Origin: Candidatus Saccharimonadota bacterium
Lineage (GTDB): Bacteria > Patescibacteriota > Saccharimonadia > Saccharimonadales > JACDBH01
DNA length: 64,000 nucleotides
Direction of reading: 5' to 3'
Assembly (NCBI GenBank): GCA_028289135.1
Contig: JAQGGW010000005.1
Span: forward strand, 139,219 to 203,218
Below, piece after piece: positions 13,283 to 44,094 of this stretch (its first letter is position 1; each line of letters opens with the position of its first letter). The notes under the pieces were generated by a model that did no database searches, was not told the DNA's origin, and saw only the letters and a program-made list of their open reading frames with translations. A program made the position numbers and the translations under genes.

Positions 13283-13984
13283 ATGAGTAATTTAGAAATA
13301 GAGGCGGCCAGGGAGGCTGCCTTAGAGGCACGACAGGTGCTTTTCCCGAACAGATACGAAGAGCCATTAATTGAAGCTTTCCAAGACTTAACGGGAATTG
13401 AAGTGCCTACACCAAAACCCAGGCAGATAACCGTTATGTCCAAAGGGGTAACCTTTGTTTTTCCGAGAGGGAGGAACATTCCATGGCTTACGGCACTTGC
13501 CAACAGGCAGCAAAATGCACCACCAACAATTGGTATGACTGGCTCAGAATGGTACGGCGAATATGCCATGGGAAGTCTTGGTAACTATAACCGTCCGCGA
13601 GTCAATGGGTTCCAAATAAGAGACAAAAAAATGGGTGAGGTTGCTTTGTTTACCCCATCTAATGTAGATAGTGAAGAAACAGCTTTGCAGTTCGCTTACA
13701 ACAAAAAAATAAGTGTTGTAACACCTTACCCCAAGCTGCTGGCGGCAATAGCAGTAAGCGATGGGTGGAGAATATATCAGGCTGAAATTTTTGACGACAT
13801 GCAAGAAACTATCAGCGGCGGTGTTGAAGCCGTAGCCGAGATGTTTGGTTTGCCTGGTGTAGACCTTGTCTGCAAAGGCGATACGCTGGACGCAAATAAC
13901 TGTACCTATATCGGAGTATTACGTGATGTTTTTCCAACGCTTGTTGCGGCAGGACGCTCGAGGTCAAATCGTGAAGCAATATAA
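13283..13984 (+). CDS. hisG: ATP phosphoribosyltransferase-like protein (divergent HisG)
   Basis: 233 aa. RGRNIPWL...IGMTGSEWYGE and ISGGVEAVAEMFGLPGVDLVCKGDTLDANN resemble HisG blocks; the N-terminus is atypical. SD AGGAGA. Confidence 0.6.
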   Translation: MSNLEIEAAREAALEARQVLFPNRYEEPLIEAFQDLTGIEVPTPKPRQITVMSKGVTFVFPRGRNIPWLTALANRQQNAPPTIGMTGSEWYGEYAMGSLGNYNRPRVNGFQIRDKKMGEVALFTPSNVDSEETALQFAYNKKISVVTPYPKLLAAIAVSDGWRIYQAEIFDDMQETISGGVEAVAEMFGLPGVDLVCKGDTLDANNCTYIGVLRDVFPTLVAAGRSRSNREAI

Positions 13985-15263
13985 AAACCCCCGACCAAAG
14001 GACTGGGCAAGCATATGTATGCGACCAGTTTTTGAACGCGCAAGTCTTGAAGATACTATTTCAAAAATCTTCGAGGATGTTCGGATAAACGGTGACAAAG
14101 CATTAAAAAGTCTAACTAAAAAATATGACGGTATAGATTTAGCGAATGTAATGCTTAGTAAAGAAGAGATATCAGAATTGGCTAGTACGACGCCTCCGGA
14201 TCTGAAAATGGCAATCTTGACGGCGTACAAGAATATCTTGTCATTCCACAGGCTCCAGGTTCCGTTAAACTTAAAACCTTACGAAACATCTAGGGGTGTT
14301 GTCTGTTGGCAAGAAAACAAGGCGATAGAAAAAGTGGGGTTGTATATACCTGGTGGTAGCGCCCCATTGATTTCAACAGTGTTGATGCTTGGCATACCGG
14401 CTAGGCTCGCTGGCTGTTCAGAGGTGATTCTTTGCACCCCGCCCTCAGCAGATGGTTTGGTTAATCCAGCCATATGTCTTGCTGCTCAGCTAGTTGGCGT
14501 TTCAAAAATAATCCGCGTAGGCGGTGTCCAGGCAATTGCGGGGCTAACTTTTGGAACCGAAAGCGTGCCAGCCGTAAATAAAGTTTTTGGTCCTGGCAAC
14601 CAATATGTTTCGGCCGCTAAAGAATATGCGCGGCGGTATGGGGTTGGTTTAGATTTGCCGGCCGGGCCATCTGAGATTATGGTGATTGCCGATGAAACCG
14701 CAATTCCAGCTTTTGTTGCAGCCGATCTTTTGAGCCAAGCGGAGCACGGTCCGGATAGCCAGGTCGTGCTCGTGGCATCAAAAACCGAAGTAATAGATAA
14801 GGTGCAGCGTGAAATTTTAAAACAGTTAAAAGATTTACCTCGTCGCGAGATCGTAATAAAGGCTTTAGAAAATTCGTTTTGCGTCTTGTTTAAAGATGTA
14901 AAAACAGCAATGGACTTTGCGAATACTTACGCACCAGAGCACCTTATTTTGAGTGTAGCGAACCCTGAAAAAATTGCTGGGCAGGTTATAAACGCCGGTT
15001 CGGTATTTCTTGGAAACTTTACGCCCGAAAGTGCCGGCGACTATGCAAGCGGCACAAATCACACATTGCCCACGGGAGGCTGGACAAAAGCATACGGGAG
15101 CTTGGGAGTTGATGATTTTCTAAAAAAGATCAGTTTCCAAAATATAAGTAAGGACGGCCTGGAAGGACTTGCTTCAATCATTACGACAATAGCGGAGGCT
15201 GAAGGGCTTGGAGCTCACGCCCGTGCTGTAATAAAACGGCTAAATTTTAAGGAGAACATATGA
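13971..15263 (+). CDS. hisD: histidinol dehydrogenase
   Basis: QAEHGPDSQ, APEHL and GDYASGTNHTLPT motifs. The ORF is open from 13866; GTG 13971 (14-nt overlap with hisG) or ATG 14019 fit HisD N-termini better, so the start is uncertain. Confidence 0.88.
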   Translation: MKQYKNPRPKDWASICMRPVFERASLEDTISKIFEDVRINGDKALKSLTKKYDGIDLANVMLSKEEISELASTTPPDLKMAILTAYKNILSFHRLQVPLNLKPYETSRGVVCWQENKAIEKVGLYIPGGSAPLISTVLMLGIPARLAGCSEVILCTPPSADGLVNPAICLAAQLVGVSKIIRVGGVQAIAGLTFGTESVPAVNKVFGPGNQYVSAAKEYARRYGVGLDLPAGPSEIMVIADETAIPAFVAADLLSQAEHGPDSQVVLVASKTEVIDKVQREILKQLKDLPRREIVIKALENSFCVLFKDVKTAMDFANTYAPEHLILSVANPEKIAGQVINAGSVFLGNFTPESAGDYASGTNHTLPTGGWTKAYGSLGVDDFLKKISFQNISKDGLEGLASIITTIAEAEGLGAHARAVIKRLNFKENI

Positions 15264-15664
15264 GTGAATTAAGGCTACTGACAAATATTGACAAACAACT
15301 CTGTTTTGATAAAGCCCCATTTACCGAAGCAGGCCAAGGTATGGTTTCGGCGATTGCAATAGATAGGTTAATGCTGGCGATAGACGGGCTTGCAGCAGTA
15401 CGCATGCAGGCCTATATGACCAGAGAGGCCGTTGAAGCGACTATTCTTGACGGATTTGTAACTTGGTTTTCGCGGTCCAGACAAGATCTTTGGCAAAAAG
15501 GTGAAACTACCGGCAACGTGTTACGGGTACGTGATGCCTGCAAAGGCGGTCTATTTTTGGGACGTGCGATCTGGGTAGACTGTGACGGCGATTCGCTGCT
15601 TATTGACGTCGAACCCATGGGCCCAACCTGCCACACTGGCGCACGTTCTTGTTTTGAAATGTAA
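15260..15664 (+). CDS. hisI: phosphoribosyl-AMP cyclohydrolase (HisI domain only)
   Basis: 134 aa. DCDGDSLLIDVEPMGPTCHTGARSCF signature. 4-nt overlap with hisD. Confidence 0.85.
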   Translation: MSELRLLTNIDKQLCFDKAPFTEAGQGMVSAIAIDRLMLAIDGLAAVRMQAYMTREAVEATILDGFVTWFSRSRQDLWQKGETTGNVLRVRDACKGGLFLGRAIWVDCDGDSLLIDVEPMGPTCHTGARSCFEM

Positions 15665-18325: not shown

Positions 18326-18580
18326 ATGGCAGACGACTCTGAGAGAGTGCAAGGCTTCATAGGAAATGGTGAAATGCTCGACATTTCACATATTGTCCGG
18401 CTGGGAAGATATGCTGCTAACGCGGGACTAACATTGCTTAGTTTGTATAGCATTGGCCTTTTGCGGCCGTTAGGTGAAAGTGATCCGCATAATGTAACCA
18501 GCCCTGACGGGTATACTTTAGGTGCAACATTGGTTCTCAGTATTGCAGAAGGAATAAGAAGAATTAGCACTCGGACTTGA
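18326..18580 (+). CDS. hypothetical small protein (84 aa) between tig and clpP
   Basis: ATG 5 nt after the tig stop, no SD. An antisense ORF is also open. Hairpin GCACTCG-GACTTGA-CGAGTGC follows. Confidence 0.3.
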   Translation: MADDSERVQGFIGNGEMLDISHIVRLGRYAANAGLTLLSLYSIGLLRPLGESDPHNVTSPDGYTLGATLVLSIAEGIRRISTRT

Positions 18581-28186: not shown

Positions 28187-28600
28187 TTGCCAACAATTAA
28201 CCAGCTCGTTCGCAATGGACGCCACAGCACGCATCAGAAGACCAAGAGTCCTGCTTTGCAGCGCGTTACTAACAGCCTTAAGACTAAGTCATACGAAAAG
28301 CCAGCGCCATTTAAGCGCGGTGTTTGTATTAAAGTTACAACCAAGACACCCAAAAAGCCAAACTCAGCCCTCCGTAAAGTCGCCCGCGTTCGCTTGAACA
28401 ACGGCTACGAAGTCTGGGCATACATTGGCGGCGAAGGCCACAACCTTCAGGAACACGCCGTAGTGCTTGTCCGTGGTGGCCGTGTGCCCGATTTGCCAGG
28501 TGTTCGTTATCACATAGTTAGAGGCAGCCTTGACCTTCAGGGTGTTGCCAACCGCAAGCGCAGCCGTTCAAAGTACGGTGCCAAGAAAGACAGTAAATAA
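28187..28600 (+). CDS. rpsL: 30S ribosomal protein S12
   Basis: 137 aa, [12 protein letters not shown]... TTG start, SD GGAG. Confidence 0.96.
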
Positions 28601-28602
28601 TC

Positions 28603-28824
28603 ATGGGTGAAAGATTTGCCACTGATTTCGATATTGAAACTGGAGTTAACCGTAAAGAAACACCTATTATACAACCTGTAACTGATGGATTATTTGATCA
28701 AGCTGCATACGTTGAGGCTCTTGAACAAGGTAAAGCTCCAATAACAGCACGTCGTGCTGGTATCAATGCAGGGAGTGTCACAATGGCAGCGATTGTGACA
28801 GTAGAAGGAGTTCAAAATGCCTAG
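28603..28824 (+). CDS. hypothetical acidic micro-protein (73 aa) inserted between rpsL and rpsG
   Basis: ATG 2 nt after the rpsL stop. Its last codons contain the rpsG SD (GAAGGAG), and its TAG lies inside rpsG codons 2-3 (ATGCCTAG). AGA/TTA/ATA codons. Confidence 0.5.
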   Translation: MGERFATDFDIETGVNRKETPIIQPVTDGLFDQAAYVEALEQGKAPITARRAGINAGSVTMAAIVTVEGVQNA

Positions 28825-29293
28825 GAAAGTTACCAAAGCCCTCGTCCGCGAGGCCGCACCAGACCGCAAATACGGCAACCAACAGGTTACCCGTGTTATC
28901 AACCGCGTTATGATCGATGGCAAAAAGCAAACCGCCGAACGCCTTGTATACGAAGGTATGGAAATTGCAGCTAAAAAGCTTAAAGTAGAGAGCCCACTAG
29001 AAGTTTTCGAAAAAGCTCTTGGCAACATCCGCCCACATCTTGAAACCCGTTCCCGCCGTGTTGGTGGTGCAAACTACCAGATCCCATTTGAAGTTAAAGG
29101 CCAGCGCCAAAACCACCTTATGACTATGTGGTTTGTAAACGCAGCCCGCGCCCGCAAAGGCATTGGCATGTCAGATCGTATTGCTATGGAACTCGTTGAC
29201 GCCTTTAACGGCACCGGCACCGCTGTCAAAAAGCGTGAAGACGCACACAAGATGGCCGAATCTAACCGCGCCTTCGCTCACTTCGCTCGCTAA
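28817..29293 (+). CDS. rpsG: 30S ribosomal protein S7
   Basis: 158 aa, MPRKVTKA...; conserved S7 blocks (RRVGGANYQIP). Confidence 0.96.
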   Translation: MPRKVTKALVREAAPDRKYGNQQVTRVINRVMIDGKKQTAERLVYEGMEIAAKKLKVESPLEVFEKALGNIRPHLETRSRRVGGANYQIPFEVKGQRQNHLMTMWFVNAARARKGIGMSDRIAMELVDAFNGTGTAVKKREDAHKMAESNRAFAHFAR

Positions 29294-29297
29294 CAAA

Positions 29298-29777
29298 ATG
29301 AGTAGACAAAGCCGAGGTCGTTTTGACTGGCAAAGCGAAAGATCTCATATTGCAGCCAGAAAACCGGCAGCACCACGATGGGGCGTCGTAACTAGTGGAG
29401 AAACATTGCCCGAAGCAAAGATAGTGCTGAGCCGGCCGTTATACGCCAAGGCAAGTGGATGTATGGGGTGTTTGGCAATAGATTCTTGCATACAAAGAGC
29501 AAGAGAAGCTTTTGATTCGATAGCAGCTCGCGGCGATATTATATTCGAAGATGTTGAGCAGAATAAAAAAGTGATTGTCGACCCTAAAAAAGTATCGGAA
29601 GATTTAGCTCAAATGATCGGTGGCTTTAATGATGCAAAAGAACAATATACTCAGCTTGCACAAGTTTGTAGAGATTCGGACACGGGCAAAATAGATCTTT
29701 ACGATGAGGGTGCCGTAGTTGGTTATATTTGCGGTGCTACTCAAGAAGAGTATAAGATAACACCAACAGAGAGTTAA
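29298..29777 (+). CDS. hypothetical protein (159 aa, ORFan; CxxC-containing)
   Basis: ATG 4 nt after the rpsG stop (internal start of ORF 29163..29777). GCMGCLAIDSC cluster. Followed by an intrinsic terminator. Confidence 0.5.
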   Translation: MSRQSRGRFDWQSERSHIAARKPAAPRWGVVTSGETLPEAKIVLSRPLYAKASGCMGCLAIDSCIQRAREAFDSIAARGDIIFEDVEQNKKVIVDPKKVSEDLAQMIGGFNDAKEQYTQLAQVCRDSDTGKIDLYDEGAVVGYICGATQEEYKITPTES

Positions 29778-29779
29778 AT

Positions 29780-29806
29780 ACAGGTAGGGAACTGCCTGTT
29801 ATTTTT
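29780..29806 (+). terminator. intrinsic terminator inside the str region
   Basis: 8-bp stem ACAGGTAG/CTGCCTGT (one G-U) with GGAA tetraloop, then TATTTTTATT. Confidence 0.65.
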
Positions 29807-29936
29807 ATTAATAGCAATTCTCCAGATTGTATGTGATAATATTGGCAAGTTCGTTATTTCTAAAGGTTTACTTTTTAGGATGCGATAGGTGGTGGAAGAC
29901 TATTAAGTTCGATACTTTTTTTGAAAGGATTTCACA

Positions 29937-30389
29937 ATGCCCGGTTACACAGAAAAGGGGCCAAGCTCAATGTCATCAGGCAATCAAGTTCAGTCAGTTT
30001 TGCCCATGAACATTGAAAAATGGAACCTAACTATTTCGAATCATATTGGACATCCCTCTAATGATGGCTACCCCGCGCTTGGAGTGCAGGGTGAGATTGT
30101 TTGGTTTGACTATACAGGTATGCAAATACCTCCTCTTTATAACCCTTATACTACTCAAGCCTCTGCACCCACAACAGCTAACAGGCTTTCACGCCGTGTT
30201 GAATCTAGTTCGTCCCGAGTAACGGCACTAGACTTAAGCCCACAACAAATTTGTGAGCAAGCGTGTTCGAGCAACCGAAGAAGTGGTTATCGTTGCGACG
30301 GCGCACAACTTGACAAGGACTTTGGAGATTTTAAGTGTTCAGTCACGGGTGATTATGAATCTTTGCCGGTAAGTTTAAGATTTAGGTAA
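29937..30389 (+). CDS. hypothetical protein (150 aa, ORFan)
   Basis: SD AAAGGA 8 nt upstream. First of three ORFs separated by 1 nt each. Confidence 0.5.
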   Translation: MPGYTEKGPSSMSSGNQVQSVLPMNIEKWNLTISNHIGHPSNDGYPALGVQGEIVWFDYTGMQIPPLYNPYTTQASAPTTANRLSRRVESSSSRVTALDLSPQQICEQACSSNRRSGYRCDGAQLDKDFGDFKCSVTGDYESLPVSLRFR

Positions 30390-30390
30390 T

Positions 30391-30879
30391 ATGGTAGATC
30401 CTGAAATTACCGGAGCTGTAGAGCCTTGGCAGGAATCTGCTGACCGCGATTATCCTGGATATGATGGTGGTTTCGTAGGCCATGAAGCTATAAAAAATTA
30501 TTATAACGCGTTAGCTTTGGACATCGTGACAGCAAATATCAAAAACTATTTTCAGGTAACTGGCAGTTATGCTGAAGCTAACGGAGTGGTCACTCACGAA
30601 GATTTAGCAGCAGGCTATGCGGCTCTGATTGTTTCTATCGCTGAAAGTGCTGCCCTGAGCGCACAAGCGGAAGATACTAAAAATGGTGGTAATGCGCGTT
30701 TGCGCCTTATGATTGATATGAAGCAAGATTTAATAGATGCTGAAGCAAAGAAGAAGGCAGCAGCGGCCAAAGCGGACGAACTAAAAGAAGCAATACGAAG
30801 GATTAATGAAGACAGCATATTGCGACAAGCCGCAGTCATAACAGCGAGCCGTGCCGAAATAGTGGAGGTAACAGAATAA
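30391..30879 (+). CDS. hypothetical protein (162 aa, ORFan; Ala/Lys-rich helical C-terminus)
   Basis: Starts 1 nt after the previous stop. DAEAKKKAAAAKADELKEAIRR segment. Confidence 0.5.
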   Translation: MVDPEITGAVEPWQESADRDYPGYDGGFVGHEAIKNYYNALALDIVTANIKNYFQVTGSYAEANGVVTHEDLAAGYAALIVSIAESAALSAQAEDTKNGGNARLRLMIDMKQDLIDAEAKKKAAAAKADELKEAIRRINEDSILRQAAVITASRAEIVEVTE

Positions 30880-30880
30880 T

Positions 30881-31255
30881 ATGGCAGGCCAAGAAACATC
30901 TATTAGAGCTGGAGAGGAATCAGCAGCTGAACAACCGCGATACGCTCGAGTTTTATCTGAAGTTGAAAGAATCCAAGGAGAAGAGGCTAAGCGTATCATA
31001 AGTCTTTCAAAACTTGCTTGGGTATTTGAATTAACACAAAAGCAAGTAAATTTGCATTCTCATTTAGAGGTTGCCGCCGAACGGCTAGCTAGAGGTATCG
31101 CTTCAATTCCAGTATTACCTGAGATATTGGCAGTATTCCAAGAAAATTACACGACTCCGCTTGTTGATGTTCTTGGAGCTGATAGATTCGCCACCATAGT
31201 TGCAGAATGTTCAGATCAAACTAACATTGTTCAATCACAGCCTGAGCTTGCGTAA
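30881..31255 (+). CDS. hypothetical protein (124 aa, ORFan)
   Basis: Starts 1 nt after the previous stop. Its 3' end overlaps the -35 of the fusA promoter. Confidence 0.5.
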   Translation: MAGQETSIRAGEESAAEQPRYARVLSEVERIQGEEAKRIISLSKLAWVFELTQKQVNLHSHLEVAAERLARGIASIPVLPEILAVFQENYTTPLVDVLGADRFATIVAECSDQTNIVQSQPELA

Positions 31256-31276
31256 CACCTCTAAAACTGCTAAAAT
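31248..31276 (+). promoter_or_regulatory. promoter TTGCGT-N17-TAAAAT (extended TG) upstream of fusA
   Basis: AGCTTGCGTAA (same 11-mer as the rpsL promoter) ...CTGCTAAAAT. -35 at 31248-31253, -10 at 31271-31276. Confidence 0.6.
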
Positions 31277-31364
31277 TACAGGGAATATGTGAGTATGGGC
31301 TGGTTTTATACGGCCAAAATCTTACAGATAACAAGTAACTAAAAAATAACCAGGAACCGACCAT

Positions 31365-33455
31365 ATGGCAGACGCAAAGAAAACACCAATGAAAGACATC
31401 CGCAACTTGGGCATTATCGCCCACATTGACGCGGGTAAAACCACTACCACCGAAGGTATTTTGTACCGCACTGGCATCAGCCACAAGATTGGCGCCGTGC
31501 ACGAAGGCGAAACCACTACCGACTGGATGGCTCAGGAGCGTGAGCGCGGTATTACCATCGTTGCTGCCTCTGTTACGTGTTTTTGGAAGGGTAATCAGAT
31601 TAACATTATCGATACTCCTGGTCACATTGACTTTACGGTTGAAGTCGAACGTTCACTCCGTGTGCTTGACGGCGCCTGCGTTGTGTTCGACGGCAAGATG
31701 GGTGTCGAAAGCCAGTCCGAAACTGTTTGGCGCCAGGCCGACAAATACGGCGTGCCTCGTATCTGTTTTATCAACAAAATCAACCAAACCGGTGGCGATT
31801 TCTACAAGAGCCTCGAATCAATTCATAACCGTTTGAGCAAGCGTGCTTTCCCAGTCCACATTCCAATTGGCTTTGAACAGAGCATCAACGGTCTTGTTGA
31901 CCTAGTTGAAATGAAGGCCTATACCTACACCGAATTCCACGACAAAGAATTAGTTGAAGCGCCAATTCCAGAAGACATGATGGATCAGGTTAAAAAAGCC
32001 CGCAGCCTGCTGGTTGAAAACGCCGTTGCCGAAGACGAAGCAATTCTTGAAAAATACTTTGAAGTTGGCGAAGAAGGTCTTAGCGTTGCTGAAATCAAGC
32101 AGGCGATCCGTACCGCAGTATTGTCTGGCAAGTTCTTTGCCGTTACCGGCGGCGATGGCCGTGGTGTTATCGTTGAAAAAGTTTTGGACATGGTGAATGA
32201 CTACCTCCCAAGCCCGCTGGACAAGGGTTCAACTTGGGGCACGCATCCAAAAACTGGTGACGAAGAAGAGCGCAAGCCATCCGAAGCTGAGCCGTTTTCA
32301 GCACTTGCGTTCAAGATTACTACCGACCCATTTGTTGGTAAGCTGGCATACTTCCGCGTTTATTCCGGAACTGTTACCGCTGGTTCATACATTTTAAACA
32401 GCTCAAACGGTGAAAAAGAGCGCGTTGGCCGTATTGTCCGCCTCCAGGCCGACAAACGTGCTGACGTTACCGAAGTGGGTGCTGGTGACATTGCCGCAAT
32501 CGTCGGCCTAAAGGCTACAACTACTGGCCATACCCTTTGTGACCCTGCGCACCCAATTGTGCTTGAAAGCATCGAATTCCCAGAACCACCTGTTTCTATC
32601 GCCATCGAACCAAAGACCAAGTCTGACCAAGAAAAAATGGGCATTGCTATGCAGCGCCTTGCCGAAGAAGATCCAACATTTAGAATCCGTGTCGACGACG
32701 AAACCGGCCAAACGGTTATCTCTGGAATGGGTGAGCTTCACCTCGAAATCCTGGTTGACCGCATGAAGCGCGAATTTGATGTTGAAGCCAACATTGGCGC
32801 GCCGCAGGTTGCCTACCGCGAAACTGTCCGCAAAGCAGGCGTTGAAGCCCAAGGTAAGTTTATCCGCCAATCTGGTGGACGTGGCCAATACGGTGACGCG
32901 TGGCTCAGAATTTCTCCAAACGAACAAGGCAAGGGCTTTGAGTTCAAAAACTCCATCAAGGGTGGTGTTATACCTGGTGAATACATCAAGCCAGTTGAAG
33001 CTGGTGTTGTTGAAGCCATGAGCACCGGTACCGTCGCTGGTTACCCAGTTGTTGATGTTATTGTTGAGCTGTTTGACGGTTCTTACCACGAAGTTGACTC
33101 CAACGAAATGGCCTTCAAAATCGCCGGCTCAATGGGCTTCCAGGCCGCAATGAAAGCCGCTGGACCAGTTTTGCTCGAACCTGTCATGAAAGTCGTTGTT
33201 GTAACTCCTGAAGAGTTCATGGGTGACGTCATCGGCGACCTAAACTCCAAGCGCGCACGCATTGAATCCATGGAAGACCTAAGCTCCGGCATCAAAGAAA
33301 TTACTGCTTTTGTTCCTCTTGGCGAAATGTTTGGCTACACAACCGCGCTACGTTCTTCTACCAAAGGCCGCGCAAGCAGCTCAATGGAGCTTGACCACTA
33401 CGCTGACGTTCCAAACCACGTTGCCGAAGCAATTGCATCTAAACGAGCAAAATAA
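31365..33455 (+). CDS. fusA: elongation factor G
   Basis: 696 aa. G1 AHIDAGKTT, DTPGHIDF; full five-domain length. Confidence 0.97.
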   Translation: MADAKKTPMKDIRNLGIIAHIDAGKTTTTEGILYRTGISHKIGAVHEGETTTDWMAQERERGITIVAASVTCFWKGNQINIIDTPGHIDFTVEVERSLRVLDGACVVFDGKMGVESQSETVWRQADKYGVPRICFINKINQTGGDFYKSLESIHNRLSKRAFPVHIPIGFEQSINGLVDLVEMKAYTYTEFHDKELVEAPIPEDMMDQVKKARSLLVENAVAEDEAILEKYFEVGEEGLSVAEIKQAIRTAVLSGKFFAVTGGDGRGVIVEKVLDMVNDYLPSPLDKGSTWGTHPKTGDEEERKPSEAEPFSALAFKITTDPFVGKLAYFRVYSGTVTAGSYILNSSNGEKERVGRIVRLQADKRADVTEVGAGDIAAIVGLKATTTGHTLCDPAHPIVLESIEFPEPPVSIAIEPKTKSDQEKMGIAMQRLAEEDPTFRIRVDDETGQTVISGMGELHLEILVDRMKREFDVEANIGAPQVAYRETVRKAGVEAQGKFIRQSGGRGQYGDAWLRISPNEQGKGFEFKNSIKGGVIPGEYIKPVEAGVVEAMSTGTVAGYPVVDVIVELFDGSYHEVDSNEMAFKIAGSMGFQAAMKAAGPVLLEPVMKVVVVTPEEFMGDVIGDLNSKRARIESMEDLSSGIKEITAFVPLGEMFGYTTALRSSTKGRASSSMELDHYADVPNHVAEAIASKRAK

Positions 33456-33634
33456 TGTCTCCTAAAACTCCCGAATATATTAATCCTGCCGAAGCACCTG
33501 TTGACCTTGTTCGCGATAGTGAAACACGATCAACTCTTTATGTAGTCGGCGGCGCAATTTTATTTGCAGCAGTTGCTGCTGGTGCAGTAATGATCGGTGC
33601 GCCAAAGAAATTGTTCAGATTCGAAAGTGACTGA
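33455..33634 (+). CDS. hypothetical single-pass membrane micro-protein (59 aa)
   Basis: Below the ORF-track cutoff. Its ATG overlaps the fusA TAA (TAATG). MSPKTPEYINPAE...LYVVGGAILFAAVAAGAVMIGAPKK has one clear hydrophobic helix. Confidence 0.45.
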   Translation: MSPKTPEYINPAEAPVDLVRDSETRSTLYVVGGAILFAAVAAGAVMIGAPKKLFRFESD

Positions 33635-35718: not shown

Positions 35719-35870
35719 GGCTCAACTACGCTTCTATGCACGGCAAGAAACGAAAAACTGCATCCAAATGCATCGGCCAGTGACATGTTTGAATTGTTCC
35801 AGGAAATGAGATTTTGTTATTTTAGTCAAAACTATGCTAAAGTAGGTTTAATTAAATGAGGTTAATTGAG

Positions 35871-36215
35871 ATGGCGGAATTTTGTCCTGGATGCGATAGA
35901 GCGGGAATGGTTGTAGGTGATGTAGCTATAAGTATAAAAAAAGACGAACTTAGAAGTCCTTTAACAGATCTAGCTATAACTTTTACAGACGAAGATGGTT
36001 TTTTGCAACGCGGTTTTTTTGGTAGAGTTGTAGACCAAGAAGCAGACCTGGATACCAGCCTACTTGGCGAACGTCTTCTCAGCCGTATAGATCGCTGTAA
36101 AAGCCCAATGAGAAATGGTACATGCCCAGCCTTTAATCATGAGGTGGTTGAACAGTTAATACGATCTCAAGTAAGCCAGGAAGCAATAACTGAGCCTGAC
36201 CAGCCAGGAATTTAG
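35871..36215 (+). CDS. hypothetical protein with two Cys pairs (possible zinc-ribbon-like)
   Basis: MAEFCPGCDRAG...RCKSPMRNGTCPAF. ATG 35871 has GAGG 9 nt upstream; ATG 35856 is also possible. Confidence 0.45.
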   Translation: MAEFCPGCDRAGMVVGDVAISIKKDELRSPLTDLAITFTDEDGFLQRGFFGRVVDQEADLDTSLLGERLLSRIDRCKSPMRNGTCPAFNHEVVEQLIRSQVSQEAITEPDQPGI

Positions 36216-42042: not shown

Positions 42043-42422
42043 TGAAAGATCTCATGTTAATTCCTAGAATCTCCGAAAAGGCATATGCCATGAGCCAGCG
42101 CGACAACATTAAGACCTATGTCTTTGAAGTCCCAACCGGTTCAAACAAGCATTCTGTTGCCCGCGCCGTGACCATGCAGTTTGACGTTGTTGTTACCAGT
42201 GTCCGCACAACTACTGCTAAGGGCAAGGTTAAGCAAAGTTACCGCAAGGGCGGCCGCCCAATTACCGGAACCCGCAGCGATGTTAAAAAGGCATATGTAA
42301 CACTCCGTGAAGGCGATGTTTTGCCATTATTCATAGAAGAGCAGCAAGAAGAAGAAAAGCAGCTTAAGGCTGACCAAAAAGCTGCTAAAGAAGCCAAAAA
42401 GGCTAAGAAGGAGACCAAGTAA
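42042..42422 (+). CDS. rplW: 50S ribosomal protein L23 (Lys/Glu-rich C-terminal extension)
   Basis: 126 aa. L23 core plus tail EEQQEEEKQLKADQKAAKEAKKAKKETK. Confidence 0.93.
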   Translation: MKDLMLIPRISEKAYAMSQRDNIKTYVFEVPTGSNKHSVARAVTMQFDVVVTSVRTTTAKGKVKQSYRKGGRPITGTRSDVKKAYVTLREGDVLPLFIEEQQEEEKQLKADQKAAKEAKKAKKETK

Positions 42423-42679
42423 TGGCTATTCATAACCAAGACCCTTTTGTCTTACATATTGACGATGTTCTTGCACATAATTCTATCGCAACTGGCATAA
42501 AAGACGCTACGGGATTAGATACGGTTTTTGTACCAGCAAATCCTAGCAATACACCTAAAGAAAATGCTATGTTTGCTGGAAAAGCTGCTCTAGCTAGTTC
42601 AATTAATAATGGTGGTTTAGTAAGAGCTGCAGAAGCTATTATTGAAGAACGTGGTGGTTTATTTGGGGAGGCAATCTAA
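42422..42679 (+). CDS. hypothetical acidic micro-protein (85 aa) inserted between rplW and rplB
   Basis: TAATG overlaps at both ends. Its first 10 nt (ATGGCTATTC) are identical to the first 10 nt of rplB. Carries the rplB SD (GGGGAGG). TTA/AGA/ATA codons. Confidence 0.5.
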   Translation: MAIHNQDPFVLHIDDVLAHNSIATGIKDATGLDTVFVPANPSNTPKENAMFAGKAALASSINNGGLVRAAEAIIEERGGLFGEAI

Positions 42680-43535: not shown

Positions 43536-43832
43536 ATGATGTTCCCTAATACTTTAGTAGAAAAAGAAATGAACAGATTTACAGAAAGAGTTGTATCGTA
43601 CGCTAATGGATCTGATCCAAGAACTCGTGATGGTATGCTTTCTGTTGTTGCTGAGGAAATTGCTATAAGTGCTGTTGACAGTCCTTTGGCCCATCCAATA
43701 GCGTGGAAAAAAGATGCCTACGATGCTATCGGTGGTTATAACCGAATAGCGGCACCGGTTATTGAGAACGCTGTTGACTTTGTATTAAAAGAAATTGGAA
43801 GAACAGCAAGCTTAGGAGGCCGATATGTCTAG
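43536..43832 (+). CDS. hypothetical micro-protein (98 aa) inserted between rplB and rpsS
   Basis: ATG 2 nt after the rplB stop. Its 3' end supplies AGGAGG for rpsS, and its TAG lies within rpsS codons 2-3 (ATGTCTAG). Several AGA codons. Confidence 0.5.
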
Positions 43833-44094
43833 ATCATTAAAGAAAGGTCCGTTTATCGATCCAAAGCTTGCAAAGAAAATTGCAGCTTTGTCTAATGACG
43901 ACCGTACCATCATCAAAACTTGGGCACGCAGCAGTACAATCTCACCAGATTTTGTTGGCCGCACCTTGGCTGTACACAACGGCAAAGTCCACGTTCCAGT
44001 GTTTGTAACCGAAAACATGGTTGGCCACAAGCTTGGTGAATTTAGTCCAACACGTAAGTTCCGCTCACACGGCGGTAAGATGGCGAAGGGTTAA
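43825..44094 (+). CDS. rpsS: 30S ribosomal protein S19
   Basis: 89 aa, [15 protein letters not shown]... Confidence 0.96.

Follow-up and report, generated by a model that had tools for sequence, protein, structure and literature searches.

Few gene arrangements in biology are as conserved as the junction between rpsL and rpsG, the genes for ribosomal proteins S12 and S7. In the window (the whole 64,000-nucleotide stretch of Saccharibacteria DNA analysed here) the two genes are separated by a 73-codon open reading frame (ORF), and the question which this locus raises is whether the ORF encodes a protein at all, and, if it does, whether that protein reflects biology specific to S12 and S7 or something more general about the way in which coupled operon junctions evolve. 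Because the junction is so conserved and the lineage is genome-reduced, ORFs at this site that are mutually unrelated, fast-changing, open and acidic are unexpected. Nothing on ORFs between these two genes turned up in literature searches, including those directed at Saccharibacteria and Patescibacteria.

The features of the junction all lie on the + strand. The rpsL gene, taken from the ORF list, occupies 28187..28600, with a TTG start, a TAA stop at 28598-28600 and a match to Pfam PF00164 at 4.4e-36, and rpsG occupies 28817..29293, with a match to Pfam PF00177 at 1.2e-50. Between them lies the 73-aa ORF (28603..28824; NCBI hypothetical protein JWO47_682, the product of which begins MGERFATDFDIETGVNRKE). 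An earlier note on this DNA correctly placed its ATG 2 nt (the two bases TC) past the rpsL stop and gave the start of the ORF as 28601; the true start is 28603, which is the sole possible one because there is an in-frame stop at 28594-28596. At the other end, as the note had also held, the last codons contain the Shine-Dalgarno sequence (SD) of rpsG, GAAGGAG at 28804..28810, which lies 6 nt before the rpsG ATG and codes for Glu-Gly inside the ORF. The ORF then runs into rpsG itself: its TAG stop (28822-28824) begins at +5 from the ATG and is indeed built from rpsG codons 2-3, within an 8-nt overlap of rpsG start and ORF stop that spans rpsG codons 1-3 (ATGCCTAG, 28817..28824).

Most junctions in this genome are spaced at -4 to +4 nt, a spacing which supports termination-reinitiation coupling, and the geometry of a termination-reinitiation pair, with stop and start on the same strand and either overlapping or a few nucleotides apart, is found at both ends of the 73-aa ORF. 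The ORF's own SD is weak (AAGAAAGA) and that of rpsG is strong; given the weak SD, translation of the ORF may depend on re-initiation, while rpsG, given its strong one, might be translated independently of any relay of ribosomes across the ORF. That the ORF would be translated stoichiometrically with S12 and S7, as the earlier note proposed, is an inference. A fusion of S12 to the ORF by frameshifting or readthrough was considered and rejected, since the ORF frame stops at 28594-28596 and the S12 frame closes soon after its TAA, and no internal promoter or terminator was found within the insert. Among dinucleotide-preserving shuffles of the 216-nt spacer, 1.5% keep any frame free of stops; the stop-free frame of the 73-aa ORF exceeds chance expectation.

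Relatives of the ORF are few. The identical protein, annotated as hypothetical, has been deposited from a Candidatus Saccharibacteria MAG and is the sole match among 5.8 billion clustered proteins, and a HMMER search through all of 1.84 billion representatives brought in one further true relative, a 93-aa protein (P0004) whose gene sits between S12 and S7 in the contig of another MAG (locus L081). Four long repeat proteins (P0002, P0003, P0005 and P0006) were rejected as homologues, their matches being multi-stretch and of low complexity. A first metagenome scan with the ORF profile gave no match; a third member, of 70 aa, is encoded at the same junction in a metagenome contig (L082), so that the family comprises three members, those of the window, L081 and L082. 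The flanking proteins of the two other loci are 94-95% identical to those of the window, with dS of 0.55-0.74. The N-terminal motif GERFATDFDIETGVNRKETP (28606..28665, + strand) is common to L082, where it reads PERFSVDADIETGAERQELP (shared pattern xERFxxDxDIETGxxRxExP; tblastn 46% identity over aa 1-48). The C-terminal motif PVTDGLFDQAAYVEALEQGKAPITARRAGI (28675..28764, + strand) is common to L081 (shared pattern PVTDGxFDxAAYxxALEQGxxPxTARRAGI...EGVQNA), which also matches the window letter for letter over the final 21 nt of the ORF. The rest of the three ORFs is unalignable and contains indels, and in each of them a single frame stays open all the way between the S12 stop and the S7 start. 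A frameshift as the cause of the C-terminal difference between the window and L082 was ruled out, since the DNA is dissimilar too.

The way in which the alignable segments differ bears directly on whether the frame is translated. Segments located via protein similarity, and hence subject to ascertainment bias, gave, in the C-terminal 37 codons compared with L081 (leaving aside the last 7 codons, which contain the SD and the overlap), 5/5/19 differences at the three codon positions and a dN/dS of 0.17 (Fisher p = 6e-5), as against 1.5-1.9 in the other two frames, and, in the N-terminal 20 codons compared with L082, a pS of 0.83 as against a pN of 0.29 (p = 3e-4). The GC content at the three codon positions is 0.63/0.45/0.18, and a codon-usage log-likelihood trained on the window's 52 genes gives the ORF a score of +15.8 bits, where real genes score 19 +/- 10 in frame and -63 +/- 22 out of frame. 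The dN of the ORF, 0.17-0.37, is 4-12 times that of S7 (0.045). Because of the third-position pattern, the dN/dS ratio, the codon usage and the keeping of the frame across indels, we conclude that the 73-aa ORF is genuinely coding and that the purifying selection on it is relaxed. Comparative sequence evidence of this kind, namely frame conservation and a dN/dS of about 0.17, argues for the view of the earlier note that this is a translated micro-ORF with coupled geometry at both ends; the checks which that note had proposed in relatives, of frame conservation and of synonymous against non-synonymous change, had a favourable outcome, the indels of L081 and L082 leaving one stop-free ORF in each.

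If the open frame were instead incidental, the spacer could be a non-coding one through which S7 would regulate its own synthesis, as an operator or leader RNA of the kind found in the S12-S7 region of E. coli. Extended rpsL-rpsG distances are common in bacteria (PMC3616713), and the spacer does hold a single candidate element, a stable 9-bp local hairpin (TGTCACAAT-GGCAGCG-ATTGTGACA, 28776..28800, + strand) which lies immediately 5' of the rpsG SD. This hairpin is specific to the window, where it falls within a 5-codon insertion relative to L081, and it has no significance against shuffles in its 71-nt context (z = -0.41); nor does the spacer as a whole fold more stably than shuffles (251 nt, z = -0.48) or contain an Rfam match, and its RNA-level sequence is not conserved between close relatives. 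A reading of this type also draws on three other loci (L014, L019 and L099), whose gaps of 80-103 nt look non-coding and have in common a motif, GTGGCTTCAGTGAC, followed by a hairpin, which could be an RNA element of a sub-clade and possibly an S7 operator. An S7 operator at the present locus would imply conserved structure in an untranslated spacer, and what is found is a coding pattern of substitution, with third-position changes specific to the ORF frame; because of that frame-specific pattern, a non-coding S7 operator is effectively excluded, and we attach hardly any probability to it.

The status of the ORF as an insert follows from the rpsL-rpsG gap in other genomes. About 60 Saccharibacteria loci, obtained from one-genome-per-species and metagenome scans with the window's S7, fall into three gap classes: gaps of about 0 nt (TAATG or TAAnnATG), which include the close relatives L085, L002, L025 and L109; gaps of 30-140 nt, which mainly look non-coding; and long gaps of 187-351 nt. 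In L085, which of the relatives without an insert is the closest, the junction reads AAGAAAGACGGTAAATAATCATGCC, and the rpsG ATG is at the position of the window's ORF ATG; the stretch is therefore an insert, and the ORF starts at the former rpsG start. In the window, TAATCATG at 28598..28605 (+ strand) is what was ancestrally the junction of rpsL stop and rpsG start and has since become the ORF's start site, and the insert-less loci L085, L009 and L002 read TAATCATGCC or TAGTCATGCC there. With regard to a source for the inserted DNA, a tandem duplication of the rpsL 3' end or the rpsG 5' end, or an origin elsewhere in the window, was looked for, and no similarity above shuffles was found.

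The long gaps are open far more often than their composition would predict, since one ATG-started ORF bridges the gap in 17 of the 18, as against 0.84 stop-free gaps predicted by shuffles; the eighteenth (L029) has an open frame with no start nearby. The bridging ORFs, of 60-110 codons, start at -1..+5 nt from the rpsL stop and end at -4..+8 nt from the rpsG ATG, and stops and frameshifts within them are strongly selected against in many lineages. Their products do not represent a single divergent family, a possibility rejected by all-against-all BLASTP and shuffle-calibrated Smith-Waterman comparison: three families are detectable (window/L081/L082, L004=L089 and L010/L017), and all other pairs are no better than shuffled sequences; the bridging sequences are mostly unrelated or very fast-evolving. 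In the L010/L017 family, pN is again below pS (0.36 against 0.73, p = 7e-7), and dN is twelve times that of S7.

What these ORFs do have in common is composition. The net charge is -3 or lower in 17 of 18 independent ORFs, as against 12.8% of null ORFs, the null being all 60-110-aa ATG ORFs of the same loci (P = 1e-14); lysine is depleted and proline enriched, and GC3 is below that of the adjacent S7 gene in 20 of 22 loci (p = 2.6e-4). On a neighbour-joining tree of S12 and S7 (about 284 residues), genomes with and without inserts are interleaved, and the window clusters with L081, L083 and L001, all of which carry inserts that differ in sequence.

The same arrangement recurs at other junctions of the window. 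Between rplW (L23) and rplB (L2), an 85-aa acidic ORF (42422..42679, + strand; GC3 0.18) overlaps the gene on either side. A perfect direct repeat of 12 nt, TAATGGCTATTC, flanks this ORF, because of which it opens with L2's own first codons (MAI). Between rplB and rpsS (S19), a 98-aa ORF (43536..43832, + strand) starts 2 nt past the L2 stop and ends in a TAG formed by S19 codons 2-3 (ATGTCTAG; S19 ATG at 43825), which gives the same ATGnCTAG overlap as in the 73-aa ORF. No family match was obtained for either. A little further on, the listed 166-aa ORF that starts at 44021 over-extends L22. In six relatives (L162-L167, L2 85-98% identical) the L23-L2 ORF is absent: L165, L166, L167, L163 and L164 (L2 95, 94, 89, 87 and 85% identical) have neither wedge ORF, and L162, with an L2 that is 98% identical, carries at L2-S19 an 83-aa ORF of unrelated sequence, together with an extra 78-aa ORF between L3 and L4, where the window has none.

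Similar ORFs occur next to genes of other kinds. An 84-aa orphan ORF (18326..18580) fills the space between tig and clpP, leaving 5 nt after the stop of the former and 3 nt ahead of the start of the latter, and a 59-aa ORF with a hydrophobic stretch (33455..33634) overlaps the stop of fusA, with a 199-aa orphan ORF between it and tuf; the class therefore extends beyond ribosomal-protein genes. Because the same geometry is found at L23-L2, L2-S19, after rpsG and at tig-clpP, and near relatives lack the ORFs or have different ones, wedge ORFs are a general phenomenon of tightly coupled operon junctions in this lineage, with rapid turnover, rather than a matter of S12/S7-specific biology. The 73-aa ORF is one case of a recurrent high-turnover class present at several operon junctions, with no singularity of S12 and S7.

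Turnover of this kind might be produced by a selfish or mobile cassette with a logic like that of mycobacterial interspersed repetitive units (MIRUs), which would target stop/start junctions, duplicate the junction and carry its ORF as camouflage against polarity, its sequence being replaced through repeated insertion or through recombination between the conserved flanks. Junction duplications are what such a cassette would leave, and besides the 12-nt repeat at L23-L2 the insert at L005:2660-2895 is bracketed by 18 nt, GAAGGAGAGCAAGTAATG, in which the 3' end of rpsL and the start are exactly duplicated, because of which that wedge protein ends in KESK as S12 does; 8-nt flanking duplications occur in L098 and at L3-L4 in L162. 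The window's own rpsL-rpsG insert, on the other hand, has no flanking repeat past the ATG, and the inserts share no common sequence, ends or inverted repeats.

Presence and absence among genomes whose L2 is 94-98% identical also point towards such a cassette, as does the divergence of ORFs at the same junction: the L2-S19 ORFs of the window and L162 align at shuffle level (global DNA z = 1.4), where simulated neutral divergence retains z = 8-16, the simulation having used L2 synonymous divergence, which may underestimate the neutral rate because ribosomal-protein synonymous sites were its basis. The low GC3 described above (0.18, as against 0.49 +/- 0.055 for host genes) likewise speaks for a cassette. 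Set against these points, the 64-kb window contains no second copy of the insert, and there is no recombinase. A mobile cassette seems to us quite improbable as an account of the insert.

The region downstream of rpsG contains further small ORFs. A 159-aa orphan ORF with a CxxC motif (29298..29777, + strand) starts 4 nt past the rpsG stop and is directly followed by a terminator-like hairpin and T-run (29780..29799), and rpsL, the 73-aa ORF, rpsG and the 159-aa ORF may therefore be a transcription unit apart from fusA. The interval 29294..31364 holds four orphan ORFs with low GC3 (29298..29777, 29937..30389, 30391..30879 and 30881..31255); among Saccharibacteria the rpsG-fusA gap varies from 18 nt to 3.9 kb, and in most relatives (loci L001-L114) an ORF of 75-125 aa begins 1-7 nt past the S7 stop. 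Four or five cysteines and an N-terminal CxxC are found in many of the small ORFs after rpsG and in one before rpsJ (window 29298..29777 and 35856..36215; L110, L002, L005, L008, L010, L017, L081, L082, L098, L100, L101 and L162:589-918). Few pairs of these are detectably similar (40% identity between window 35856 and L162:589, 27% between the 159-aa ORF and L110), and their shared cysteine pattern suggests a divergent family of small, possibly zinc-binding proteins typical of this operon region. Elsewhere in the window, at 13283..15664, genes for histidinol dehydrogenase and PRA-CH (histidine biosynthesis) adjoin hisS, which is unusual for a reduced Saccharibacteria genome.

The product of the 73-aa ORF, with a net charge of -4 and a pI of 4.5, is acidic and unlike a ribosomal protein, as the earlier note had observed. 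Identification as a ribosomal protein was rejected in view of the pI, the absence of the ORF from close relatives and the lack of a PDB match (best E = 0.087). In Pfam the top-scoring entry is DUF1802, with E = 0.19; searches of NCBIfam, PHROGs and PADLOC returned no match, and two viral scans gave no match that would indicate a phage origin, so that the homology and structure search which the note had named as a challenge to novelty matched no known family. An AlphaFold model (AF2, two-sequence alignment) has a pLDDT of 42, which is low confidence, and contains one helix, at residues 33-41 within the C-terminal motif; the product is probably disordered. Its predicted tryptic peptides are FATDFDIETGVNR, ETPIIQPVTDGLFDQAAYVEALEQGK and AGINAGSVTMAAIVTVEGVQNA.

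An acidic and partly disordered protein encoded between two basic, RNA-binding ones could have a function tied to its neighbours, as a partner of S12 and S7 that acts as a chaperone, an RNA mimic or a modulator of assembly or translation, with coupling setting its dose. The purifying selection at motif level (omega of 0.17), which is seen likewise in the independent L010/L017 family, speaks for such a role, as do the class-wide acidity and the placing of wedge ORFs between basic ribosomal proteins at three junctions. The constraint on the C-terminal motif (PVTDGxFDxAAYxxALEQG..TARRAGI), and that in L010/L017, exceeds what harmless filler would need and hints at a real protein function. A partner of S12 and S7 would, however, hardly be expected to be missing in the close relatives L085, L002, L025 and L109 or to be replaced by unrelated sequences at the same junction in other lineages, and because those sequences are unrelated they offer no common binding surface. 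Similar wedge ORFs at tig-clpP and after fusA have neighbours that are not basic ribosomal proteins, no fold is predicted, and non-synonymous change is far faster than in S7. A neighbour-tied function is in our judgement a possibility to be taken seriously but still an unlikely one.

The reading which we consider somewhat probable is that an insert at a stop/start junction is retained only when it forms a translated relay ORF, which preserves coupling, and that the product is mainly selected to be harmless, with a modest function at most. According to this account, about 216 nt were inserted exactly where the rpsL stop meets the rpsG start, giving rise to a 73-codon ORF that captured the old rpsG start site. 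Ribosomes finishing S12 would re-initiate 2 nt downstream, translate across the insert, unwind and pass the new rpsG SD and ATG, stop 5 nt beyond that ATG and begin again on rpsG, so that the insert would act as a translational relay or bridge and the essential coupled operon would stay covered by ribosomes. Stops and frameshifts would be purged because they would leave 200-350 nt untranslated and would uncouple or polarise rpsG and the genes downstream. Production of S7 would then depend on the ORF being translated. For E. coli, the share of S7 synthesis that is coupled to the translation of S12 amounts to 80-90% (PMC3616713, PMC10931766).

The same account extends to the peptide, which would be selected chiefly to be soluble and non-sticky at ribosomal-protein expression levels; such selection would explain why it is acidic, poor in lysine and probably disordered. 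Sequence-specific constraint would add to harmlessness, and part of the peptide is constrained.

If relay translation of this kind takes place, the locus is a natural experiment in which coupling both limits the insertions that an operon can accept and turns inserted DNA into a translated ORF. New peptides would be exposed to selection at very high expression, and bacterial de novo gene birth, as well as the cost of abundant junk peptides, would become directly testable. A further step, which we put forward as a speculative and rather unlikely extension, is that the stop/start junctions of the best-conserved and most heavily translated operons in soil Saccharimonadia are landing pads for continual gene creation, in which active insertion duplicates the junction, ribosome flow forces the inserts to be open, and the acidic peptides, produced at the level of ribosomal proteins, then gain functions such as buffering free basic ribosomal proteins or acting on a host; this would constitute a natural and recurrent route of gene birth within essential operons. 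Wedge ORFs are annotated as isolated hypothetical proteins, and annotation based on families would miss such ORFs.

Several known systems resemble the 73-aa ORF in part. The closest in logic are MIRUs (Supply et al. 1997, via PMC12548453) and short ORFs that deliver ribosomes; MIRU insertions at start codons and the ribosome-delivery concept are both reviewed in PMC12548453. As MIRUs are summarized in that review, they too place extra DNA at a start codon within an operon, just as the ATG of the 73-aa ORF is at the ancestral rpsG ATG position; they have the same junction overlap geometry, and they contain an internal ORF on the operon strand which is coupled to the downstream start and has little effect on expression. 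The MIRUs of that summary are, however, short, multi-copy and related in sequence, whereas the inserts described here are 187-351 nt long, mutually unrelated and, in the case of the window's, unique within 64 kb; their products are consistently acidic and partly under purifying selection, and the host belongs to Saccharibacteria rather than to Mycobacterium. Ribosome-delivery ORFs and synthetic bicistronic designs (PMC12548453) likewise involve a short ORF which ends at or just past the next start, delivers ribosomes and keeps the initiation region open. These are usually much shorter ORFs in 5' leaders, whereas the wedge ORF is internal, between two essential genes, belongs to a class of 60-110 codons and has constraint at the peptide level.

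In genomic position the counterpart is the S12-S7 region of the E. coli str operon, with its S7 operator and coupled translation (Saito, Mattheakis and Nomura 1994, via PMC10931766 and PMC3616713). As those two sources relay it, that region also has an extended spacer between the cistrons, and S7 synthesis there depends largely on ribosomes arriving from rpsL. The E. coli spacer is described in them as an S7-binding structured RNA of about 100 nt that is not translated, whereas the spacer here is coding and has no significant structure or Rfam match. The 73-aa ORF thus matches the logic of MIRUs and of ribosome delivery and the position of the E. coli S7 operator, yet it belongs to none of the three, because its insert is non-repetitive, it does not lie in a 5' leader and its spacer is not an untranslated structured RNA. 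As in lineage-specific orphan or de novo small proteins, homologues are found in very close relatives only and the product is small, probably disordered and fast-evolving; the wedge ORF differs from these in that it occupies a set place, a stop/start junction in a universally conserved operon, and in that the same slot holds different sequences in sister lineages.
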